A stretch of 61,559 nucleotides of DNA, filler included, from Basidioascus undulatus (Eukaryota): assembly GCA_000826855.1 (NCBI GenBank). It is 5 parts of 5 records of this genome, joined end to end, with 100 filler letters (N's around TTAATTAATTAA, not from the genome) between each part and the next. Parts side by side here need not be neighbours in the genome. Positions count along the whole stretch, not along the records: positions 1 to 28,801 come from JTLS01000144.1; 4 more parts are not named here. One strand, given 5' to 3'. The position numbers and the translations under genes are program-made. Below, piece after piece: positions 17,615-19,326 of this stretch (positions within the stretch are counted from its first letter, which is position 1; every line of letters begins with the position of its first letter). The notes below the pieces were generated by a model. It made no database searches. It was not told the DNA's origin and was given only the letters and a program-made list of their open reading frames with translations.

Positions 17615-19326
17615 TTACTTGCAGCCGTGAGTGCAAGGCTTCTTGGTGTGAACCTCAGGCTTCTTCTTCTTGCACCTACAGGGGAACGTTATCAGTGGGC
17701 GTCCAAGCGGATGAAGGATGGAGATTACCATACTCCTCGTGCTTGGGCGCCTTGTACTCGTGGACGGGCTTGTACTCGTGGACGGGCTTGTACTCGTGGA
17801 CGGGCTTGTACTCGTGGTGCTTGCACTTCTCCTCCTCGCACTTGTGCTTGTATACCGGCTTCTTCTCGCACCTGTGGGGCGCCAACGTTAATCGAAGTAA
17901 CCCGATCAAGCGGCCCAAATGTAAAAAGCTCACCCGTGGTGGCACTCGCCGTGCTGCTGCTCGATCTCAATGATCTCGATCTCCTCCTCCGACTCCTCGT
18001 CGGACGAGTAGTCGCGCTTGGACTTCTTGCCCTTCTTGCCGTGCTTGATGGAATCGTGCTCGAATTCGGAGAGGGTGATGAAAGCGTCCATCTGCCAGCC
18101 GGTTGTCAGCAGCTGCGGCAATGGAGAAGAGGAAAGCGCCGGTCACGCACGTTGACTCGGTTGAGAATGTTAATGGGCTTCGGGCGCTCCTTCTCATCGG
18201 GGGCGGCGATAGAGCGGCGGTAGTGCTTCTTGTGTCCGGACTTGATGGAGTCATTTTCAAACTCGGAGAGCGTGATGAAGGCCTCGACCTGGCTCGGCCG
18301 AGGCAGCAGGACGTCAGCTCATGAGCCCAAGCGGCAGTGCGGAACGTGCGACCCACGTCCACTTTGTTCTTCAAATTGATCGGCTTGGGGCGCTTTTCCT
18401 CGTCACGGGCGGCCAGGGAGCGCCTGCCGTGCTTCTTGTGGCCCGACTTGATGGAGTCGTTCTCGAACTCGGAGAGCGTGATGAAGGCATCGATCTGTGG
18501 GTCAGGTTGTTTGTCACCTGCGTTTACACAAAAAATAGTAGAGTAATATAACGAACATTAGCGTGGTTGACGATGGAAATGGGCTTGAACTGTGGGGTAG
18601 CATAAGGGGTAAGACTACGCCCTTGAGTGGTCTCAGAGGGAAACAGAACGGGTCTTGACCTCCTCCTCGCTGTCGCTCTCCTCCTTCTTGGGAGCCTGAA
18701 CCTTCTTGGGCTTGGTCTTCATGGGAGCCTTGACCTTCGTGATCTTGGCCTTCTCGTCCTAGTAAAAATGGGCGGGATGGCGTCAGAGACGACCTCCCAG
18801 TGAAGTGAAACGTTGGCTGCTTTACCTTCTTCTCCTTCTTCTCCGCCTTGGCCTTGCGGGCAACTAGCGAACGCTTGTCCTTCTTTCCGCCGTGCCCGAA
18901 GTGGCCGAAGTTGGCGTGCTCGAACTCGGACAAGGTGAACTGGAGGTCGGTCTGCGGGAGAGAAGGACTGTCAGATACGCTGCACATCAGATAGTGGAGG
19001 AATGTCCCGCTCACGTCCACCCTGTTCTTGATGTTCACGGGCTGCTCCTTGTGCTCCTTCTTATCCTTCTTCTCCTGCTTCTCCGCACGCTTGCTTTTCT
19101 TGCCGTGGCCGTGGCCGAGATGGCCGAAGTTGGCATGCTCAAACTCCGAGAGCGTGAATTCGAGGTTGGTGTCGACGGCATTCTTAATGTTCACGGGCTG
19201 CTCCTTCTTCTGGGCGCGGGCCTGGATCCCCGACGACGACGCGGACGGCCCGGAAAGGAGGGGGACCGCGATGGCGCCGCAGGAGAGCGTGAGGACGGTG
19301 ATGGTGAACGTGGTAGTGGAGCGCAT
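17615..19326 (-). CDS. Secreted Kex2-processed repeat protein: 5 copies of the TLSEFE unit plus a His/Cys/Lys/Glu-rich tail
   Basis: Signal peptide MRSTTTFTITVLTLSCGAIA. Repeats: QPVNIKNAVDTNLEFTLSEFEHANFGHLGHGHGKKSKR; QPVNIKNRVDTDLQFTLSEFEHANFGHFGHGGKKDKR; KPISIVNHANIDAFITLSEFENDSIKSGHKKHGRR; KPINLKNKVDVEAFITLSEFENDSIKSGHKKHYRR; KPINILNRVNMDAFITLSEFEHDSIKHGKKGKKSKR. Ends ...KKPCTHGCK* (TAA 17615-17617). GT-AG introns keep the frame. Confidence 0.85.
17751..17817. repeat. 18-bp tandem repeat (CTTGTACTCGTGGACGGG x3.7) encoding PVHEYK on the minus strand
   Basis: Three perfect units and one partial unit, directly visible. Confidence 0.95.

Follow-up and report, generated by a model that had tools for sequence, protein, structure and literature searches.

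We analysed a 61,559-nucleotide stretch of Basidioascus undulatus DNA (GenBank assembly GCA_000826855.1; five parts joined end to end, with filler between them), here called the window, and describe two paralogous genes in it, gene 1 and gene 2, whose predicted products carry a signal peptide followed by repeat units with basic ends (Table 1). An earlier reading made from the sequence alone (the sequence-only reading) had proposed that the gene 1 locus encodes a new family of secreted repeat peptides processed by Kex2. Gene 1 lies exactly where that reading placed it, with the ATG at 19326 and the stop codon at 17615-17617, and splicing joins it in one frame as had been claimed: in our in-silico model the 1203-nt coding sequence closes without stops and has a GC content at third codon positions (GC3) of 0.888. 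The coordinates and the spliced repeat architecture of gene 1 are confirmed. All eight introns are 58-70 nt long and bounded by GT..AG, and CTGAC-like branch sites were found shortly 5′ of the acceptor in most of them when the intron sequences were read by eye. GTCAAG is a weak donor for intron 3; use of an alternative in-frame donor 15 nt downstream would give 5 residues more. Intron 1 (63 nt) is itself stop-free in frame, which has a chance of roughly 1 in 8, and a transcript retaining it would still give a full-length protein, with 21 added residues within unit 2.

The coding character of both genes was apparent from base composition. The GC3 of gene 1 compares with 0.548 in its introns and about 0.5 in the flanks, and that of gene 2 is 0.885 against 0.567 in the introns. 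In the assigned frame GC peaks at codon position 3 in every one of the nine gene 1 exons (0.73-0.98), and over both genes 13/13 exons have their top GC3 in that frame; lysine is encoded by AAG 67 times and by AAA twice. Confirmed genes of the window have similar values (0.94 for the open reading frame (ORF) of the myosin-chitin synthase and 0.86 for Urb2). ORFs on the plus strand over the gene 1 locus were considered as the real gene and rejected, with no Pfam match above threshold; one of them has a high GC3 because its third positions coincide with those of the minus-strand frame.

Gene 2 came to light when a profile built from gene 1's five exon-units was run over all six frames of the window, which returned matches at the gene 1 locus and at 57.5-58.7 kb on the same strand, and nowhere else (profile hits at 2.3e-20, 2.3e-17 and 1.4e-13 for gene 2). 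The two proteins have the same signal peptide and pro-region and are 79% identical over 78 amino acids (aa), and exon 1 of the two genes differs by a dS of 0.72 and a dN of 0.10 (synonymous and nonsynonymous divergence). Exons and introns are colinear, intron 5 of gene 1 being alignable with intron 3 of gene 2. The untranslated leaders of about 165 nt share a nearly identical run of about 40 nt, and the likeness is lost just upstream of the TATA box. Gene 2 has no Cys/His tail and stops immediately behind its final unit's basic tail, at the point where gene 1 carries a cutting site. The sequence-only reading had spoken of eight repeat units without naming gene 2; that number holds only for both genes together (5 + 3) and not for 17615..19326, and the three units of gene 2 account for it. 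The leader of gene 2 contains an upstream ORF of 18 codons (ATG at 58410; 58357-58410, minus strand) that is absent from gene 1, and the copies may differ in translational control. A short motif (GGTTCGTGAC...CTGCTGT) recurs in about three copies within the 3′ untranslated region of gene 2 (57470-57530, minus strand), just past the stop.

Table 1. Features of the two genes and of the rest of the window
Feature	Position	Strand	Remarks
Gene 1	17615..19326	minus	9 exons, 1203-nt coding sequence, 400 aa; frame closes without stops
Gene 1, exons 1-5	19326-19015, 18951-18826, 18758-18660, 18589-18557, 18494-18357	minus	
Gene 1, exons 6-9	18288-18151, 18091-17934, 17871-17734, 17675-17615	minus	
Gene 1, 5′ leader and TATA box	19327..19490	minus	TATAAGG at 19486; conserved with gene 2; no upstream ATG
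Predicted signal peptide, about 20 aa	19267..19326	minus	basic N-terminus, hydrophobic core, A-x-A before likely cut; kept in paralogue
Short Ser/Pro-rich pro-region	19216..19266	minus	ends IQAR (VQAR in paralogue); conserved between paralogues
Unit 1, type A	19087..19200	minus	P-V-N-I-K-N..TLSEFEH..His/Gly-rich..KSKR; intronless
Unit 2, type A	18871..19044	minus	split by intron 1 (19014-18952); KDKR end, then SLVAR
Lys/Glu/Ala/Pro-rich linker	18660..18870	minus	end of exon 2, intron 2, exon 3
Unit 3, type B	18420..18589	minus	K-P-I-x-I..TLSEFENDSIKSGH..HGRR; micro-exon 4, intron 4 and start of exon 5; then SLAAR
Unit 4, type B	18214..18389	minus	split by intron 5 (18356-18289); HYRR end
Unit 5, type B	18014..18183	minus	split by intron 6 (18150-18092); KSKR end
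C-terminal 92-aa part	17618..18013	minus	acidic stretch, then Cys(7)/His(12)/Lys-rich tail; exons 7-9, introns 7 and 8
18-nt tandem repeat, 3.7 copies	17751..17817	minus	HEYKPV copies in tail; perfect (100% matches, score 134)
Gene 2	57533..58289	minus	4 exons, 182 aa; signal peptide, same pro-region, 3 units (1 type A, 2 type B)
Gene 2, exons	58289-57978, 57910-57884, 57817-57686, 57610-57533	minus	
Gene 2, 5′ leader and TATA box	58290..58460	minus	TATA box at 58454; conserved with gene 1
Urb2/Npa2 C-terminal domain	13179-13865	plus	Pfam
Ketoreductase-type short-chain dehydrogenase	15159-15593	minus	Pfam
Chitin synthase	29543-35596	minus	N-terminal myosin motor head and cytochrome b5-like domain; between genes 1 and 2 in the window
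Rbx1-type RING-H2 finger	37994-38467	plus	Pfam
Beta-lactamase-family protein	40378-41711	plus	Pfam
U3 snoRNP protein Utp6	53585-54538	plus	Pfam

The repeat units have been kept by selection at the protein level while their synonymous sites drifted. Units 1 and 2 of gene 1 share 89% of their amino acids over 27 codons, with a proportion of synonymous differences (pS) of 0.65 and a dN/dS of 0.06, and pairs of type B units have dN/dS of 0.17-0.23 where it could be computed. Since synonymous sites are near-saturated between units 1 and 2, the unit duplications are old and orthologues are predicted in related fungi. When exon boundaries were tallied by hand against the unit alignment, 6/8 units shared the position of a phase-0 intron, which falls behind the N-x-V-D stretch and ahead of the residues preceding TLSEFE, indicating a layout of one unit per exon. 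These results also bear on whether the locus might hold no working gene at all, just a decaying or chance frame or a wrong splice model. Homologues were absent from every collection searched and the donor of gene 1 intron 3 is weak; against this stand the in-frame GC3 of 0.89 over all exons, dN/dS of 0.06-0.23 inside unit types and 0.14 between the paralogues, and two intact copies with common intron positions, TATA box and leader. Such a reading is already unlikely, and we give it hardly any credence.

The predicted protein 1 is a hydrophilic repeat protein behind a single hydrophobic segment. Signal peptide and membrane segments were judged by hydropathy and inspection. The Kyte-Doolittle mean over 19 residues reaches its maximum of 1.89 at residues 6-24 of protein 1 and stays at or below 0.74 after residue 30; in protein 2 the maximum is 1.76 (within residues 5-24 in both genes), falling to 0.51 after residue 30, and by this measure neither protein has a segment resembling a transmembrane one after the signal peptide. 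The mature parts have grand averages of hydropathy (GRAVY) of -1.30 (gene 1) and -1.01 (gene 2), and protein 1 contains 17.2% Lys, 12.2% Glu and 6.8% His. TLSEFE occurs in frame five times in protein 1 and is invariant, and the unit ends KSKR, KDKR, HGRR, HYRR and KSKR, together with SLVAR, SLAAR and IQAR, were all present as the sequence-only reading had listed them. Its unit length of about 30 aa was too short: units recur every 46-51 aa or so, and the part conserved among them is a core of about 33 aa. An N-D-S sequon is present in 4/8 units of the two genes, type A units close with a His/Gly-rich stretch, and the linker after unit 2 contains an internal 33-nt repeat in 2.2 copies. The tail of gene 1 carries two C-x-H-G-C motifs, and its exons 8 and 9 have GC3 values of 0.98 and 0.76; no Pfam match was found for the tail.

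We favour the reading, which we hold to be fairly probable, that the products of the two genes are polyprotein precursors which are secreted and belong to the type known as Kex2-processed repeat proteins (KEPs). The signal peptide would take the precursor into the endoplasmic reticulum, and in the late Golgi a Kex2-type convertase would cleave after the [K/H]-x-[K/R]-R that closes every unit. Further cleavage would probably follow the [I/L/V]-x-A-R ends of the pro-region and of the 5-residue spacers. Gene 1 would thereby give five hydrophilic peptides of roughly 36-84 residues and a Cys/His-rich tail of 92 residues, and gene 2 three peptides. In each peptide an amphipathic stretch of beta type (P-x-N-x-K-N-x-V-D ... 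TLSEFE) would precede an end rich in His, Gly and Lys. The gene structure, the selection acting on the units and the position specificity of the arginines are established; secretion, cutting and any extracellular role are inferred.

The placement of arginine carries most of the argument for cutting. The mature proteins of both genes hold 93 Lys and 22 Arg (115 basic residues), yet Arg occupies P1 at 7/7 internal unit-end sites; such an arrangement arose in 0/200,000 permutations of the Lys/Arg labels (analytic value 9e-6), a test that overstates independence given the common ancestry of the units. Because Arg is rare and nonetheless stands at P1 of all these unit ends, Kex2 cutting is favoured. 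By a hand tally of Arg contexts, 17/22 arginines fall within motifs of the form [KR]R or [ILV]xAR. All seven sites have Lys or His at P4, and they keep the same place in 7/7 internal units though the basic tails around them vary. Kex2 accepts almost exclusively Arg at P1, favours Lys/Arg at P2 while tolerating others, and prefers Leu or other aliphatics at P4, which yields an extended LxxR motif (PMC8528282). The IQAR that the sequence-only reading took as the end of the pro-region is present and contains no dibasic site; like VQAR, LVAR, LAAR and LKAR, it conforms to this LxxR-type motif.

Both predicted proteins were also compared with the in-silico definition of a KEP in PMC6339444, namely a signal peptide, no transmembrane segment, four or more fragments no shorter than 2 aa after cutting at KR/RR, a motif shared by at least three fragments (the C-terminal one being recoverable) and repeats making up at least 15% of the protein. 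Cutting at each KR/RR in silico gave seven fragments for gene 1 and four for gene 2, each of at least 2 aa. A TLSEFE unit lies on 5/7 of the former and 3/4 of the latter, one of these being the C-terminal fragment, and the core of about 33 aa makes up about 41% of protein 1 (five copies over 400 aa) and about 54% of protein 2 (three over 182 aa). Both proteins have every property in the definition, and the claimed architecture of a signal peptide and repeats, each with a dibasic site behind it, was borne out.

As to their role, our leading guess, made by analogy, is that the peptides act at the hyphal surface or wall in the manner of the Ustilago repellents; the loose likeness to Rep1 units that the sequence-only reading proposed may serve as a lead. 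The amyloid or repellent idea is a reasonable guess drawn from beta-type hydrophobic periodicity: the 20-residue core has its largest average hydrophobic moment, 0.41, at 170 degrees, as compared with 0.19 at 100 degrees, and z-scores against shuffles are 1.2-3.1 over the eight units and at least 2.2 in five of them. The alternation of polar and hydrophobic residues noted by the sequence-only reading is therefore measurable, as the 170-degree peak demonstrates, but it is modest, and the AlphaFold2 model described below has no strands. Metal binding is suggested as a second possibility by the His/Gly-rich ends of the type A units and the two C-x-H-G-C motifs of the Cys/His tail.

Several points weigh against the KEP reading, beside the shared ancestry of the units. 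Asp stands at P3 in two sites (KDKR and KDRR), where it is unfavourable for Kex2 (PMC8528282); Pro directly follows one KR; one spacer reads SIAAP and has lost its Arg; and about three [KR]R dipeptides would be expected from composition (17% Lys). Comparisons of type A with type B units gave dN/dS up to 0.92, over 27 codons with saturated sites. The 9-24 aa class dominates among ascomycete KEP peptides (PMC6339444), and the peptides predicted here are longer than most of these. AlphaFold2, given the 84-aa mature exon-1 piece aligned with its paralogue, returned a low-confidence model (mean predicted local distance difference test score (pLDDT) 60.5, predicted template modelling score (pTM) 0.17) that is mostly coil, lacks strands and contains two short helices, of which one covers LSEFEH...; with confidence so low the model is too weak for use or for a fold search. 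Finally, splicing, secretion and cleavage are, for both genes, predictions from the DNA sequence.

Some of these points fit a secreted or wall-bound repeat protein that is left whole, highly charged and mostly disordered, rich in Lys, Glu and His with its units acting in tandem, for example a wall or matrix component, a polyanion binder or a metal binder, in which the dibasic sites are a by-product of basic composition. The composition and the mature GRAVY of protein 1, the few [KR]R expected by composition, the coil of the AlphaFold2 model and the two sites with Asp at P3 agree with this, as does the tail with its 7 Cys, 12 His and Tyr/Pro/Lys hexapeptide repeats; repeats of that kind recall cross-linked wall proteins. 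A mere by-product of composition is hard to reconcile with the near-confinement of Arg to P1/P2 of unit ends and to xAR motifs, Lys being used elsewhere (the 0/200,000 permutations above), with sites fixed in 7/7 internal units amid variable basic tails, or with gene 2 terminating exactly at a unit end. We consider an uncleaved protein rather unlikely, though not negligibly so.

A bolder version of the KEP reading would make the genes, with the host taken as an ascomycete, an ascomycete counterpart of the basidiomycete repellents, releasing Kex2-cut amphipathic beta-forming peptides onto the hyphal wall in a metal-dependent manner through the His ends and the Cys/His tail. We regard this combination as decidedly unlikely; if true, surface peptides cut from a polyprotein would have arisen in fungi a second time, independently, from duplicated one-unit exons.

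The KEP architecture would also suit a precursor whose peptides diffuse as signals, in the way of pheromones or hormones, and are sensed by the fungus or a partner organism. Precursors of the alpha-factor type are polyproteins of this kind, the unit core is strongly conserved, as expected for a ligand, and the two unit types could be two ligands. The predicted peptides of at least 36 aa are, however, far from the 9-24 aa of alpha-type pheromones (PMC6339444). The same source takes the STE13 signature (X-Ala/X-Pro) as the mark of hormone-like KEPs; a consistent signature of this type was not found after the sites, where the residues are AE, SL, SL, PK, SI, DY, AL, AA and SL and AA alone fits. 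No receptor gene was seen nearby in Pfam scans of the window ORFs. Taken together, a signalling precursor appears very unlikely.

The genomic context was surveyed with Pfam. The region 12.5-26 kb holds 81 ORFs of at least 75 aa, of which 64 were scanned (12 that overlap gene 1 and five edge duplicates were left out, and six of those 12 were scanned separately); elsewhere in the window all 240 ORFs of at least 90 aa were scanned. DUF3328 (UstYa) and tyrosinase domains were found in 0/304 of these ORFs, in a scan of raw ORFs that could miss a gene of small exons. This result argues against a ustiloxin-type cluster, that is, against the genes being precursors of a ribosomally made peptide with post-translational modifications (RiPP) of the ustiloxin/dikaritin type, from which short cores would be excised and cyclised. 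Such a precursor would share with UstA the signal peptide and Kex2-flanked repeats (PMC7329392), but the neighbours here are housekeeping genes (Urb2, the short-chain reductase, the myosin-chitin synthase, Rbx1 and Utp6), the conserved core contains no Tyr, and the units are at least 36 aa long rather than 4-10 aa. We therefore judge a RiPP precursor extremely improbable. The large chitin synthase gene is of the class V/VII type of filamentous fungi.

Two further observations concern the window itself. Long plus-strand ORFs at 27087-28249 consist almost entirely of Arg/Asp/Glu repeats (RDRERDR-type low complexity) and gave no Pfam match; such low complexity occurs in some RNA-processing proteins. 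Four pairs of 44-base N-runs (28802-28901, 37011-37110, 45212-45311 and 53387-53486) recur at a regular spacing of about 8.2 kb and have the look of masked sequence more than of gaps in the assembly; a Gln/Pro/Gly-rich ORF near 28.8 kb is broken by one pair.

Searches for relatives bore out the statement of the sequence-only reading that it recognised no named family: Pfam, PDB, protein-library and metagenome searches returned no relative. The unit-profile check it had proposed was run in part, as an exhaustive search of 1.84 billion representatives, and did not match a characterised family. Pfam gave nothing above threshold for any exon of the two genes or for plus-strand ORFs over the locus, and PDB sequence searches gave no match. 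A word-indexed protein search with exon 1-exon 2 read through the in-frame intron 1, at two length settings, found none at E 0.01; these blanks are weak because a control, a beta-lactamase-like ORF of the window with a Pfam match, also came back empty at 1e-10. The five exon-units of gene 1, searched as a profile over the 1.84 billion representatives, yielded a single match (E 5e-4) to a 2552-aa protein, which we rejected as spurious because it is made up of 15 sub-threshold stretches of at most 2.6 bits each. A scan of metagenome contigs gave 116 pattern matches, none of them confirmed. The window's own proteins were not returned, so the gene calls of this genome appear to be absent from the libraries searched. 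TLSEFE and related motif strings had no match in the searchable full-text literature. The unit motifs are absent from the supplements of PMC6339444 and PMC7329392, which is uninformative, as the control strings QKLKVD, YAIG and WHWLQL are absent from them too; Table S2 in supplement 2 of the latter gives accession numbers, not sequences. The family is absent from the collections searched, which contained no fungal genomic DNA; that it is confined to one species does not follow.

The architecture is already common in fungi, while the repeat sequence itself matched nothing searched. KEPs that stand alone without homologues make up 2,560 of 7,878 (PMC7329392), and because such orphans number in the thousands, the gene pair would without a function be a catalogue entry and not a surprise. 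Very few members of the KEP class have a known function, and if the peptides are real, a long-unit, His-rich type would be added to it. The one-unit-per-exon layout shows a route by which KEP-type precursors can gain and lose units. If the peptides are real, the two paralogues with their two unit types would also be a clean case for testing, since the predicted peptide ends can be checked directly by mass spectrometry.

Among known systems, Ece1 of Candida albicans resembles the proteins predicted here in that behind its signal peptide come several peptides about 30 aa long with KR at each end-point. Its product candidalysin is a hydrophobic, helical, membrane-damaging peptide. A cytolytic peptide of this kind was rejected for the present genes, since no hydrophobic segment follows the signal peptide (Kyte-Doolittle at most 0.74). 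With alpha-factor and ascomycete alpha-type precursors the predicted proteins would share a pre-pro leader, repeated peptides released by Kex2 and Kex1 trimming of basic ends; those pheromones, however, are 9-24 aa long with X-Ala/X-Pro removed by Ste13 (PMC6339444), whereas here the peptides would be at least 36 aa long with S-L-x-A-R spacers. Dikaritin precursors (UstA; PMC7329392) have the signal peptide and Kex2-flanked repeats in common with them, but carry short Tyr cores and lie near DUF3328 and tyrosinase genes, neither of which was found in the scanned ORFs here.

The likeness to the KEP class at large extends from the signal peptide, the lack of a membrane segment and at least three similar fragments at KR/RR to repeats exceeding 15% of the protein. 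A second such gene lies nearby in the window, as in 9.7% of KEP genes without a DUF3328 neighbour (PMC7329392). KEP is an architecture, however, and not a homologous family; the repeat sequence here matched no searched entry, and the long units (36-84 aa), the unit-per-exon phase-0 layout and the Cys/His-rich tail of gene 1 set the pair apart. A further comparison is with Ustilago maydis Rep1. This protein carries 12 repeats behind a signal sequence; cutting at its Kex2 sites yields 10 peptides of 34-53 aa and a 229-aa product, which assemble as amyloid fibrils in aerial hyphae, within their wall (PMC3133707). Rep1 comes from a basidiomycete and has 12 repeats against five and three units here, the 36-84 aa peptides predicted here are very hydrophilic, and the amyloid, the wall location and the aerial-hypha phenotype are those shown for Rep1. 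Both systems have a signal peptide and Kex2-site repeats, the present precursors would give peptides of similar size and a larger product (92 aa), both lack the STE13 signature, and the core here has an amphipathic beta-type pattern; by this analogy, Rep1 would be the nearest functional analogue of the predicted peptides.

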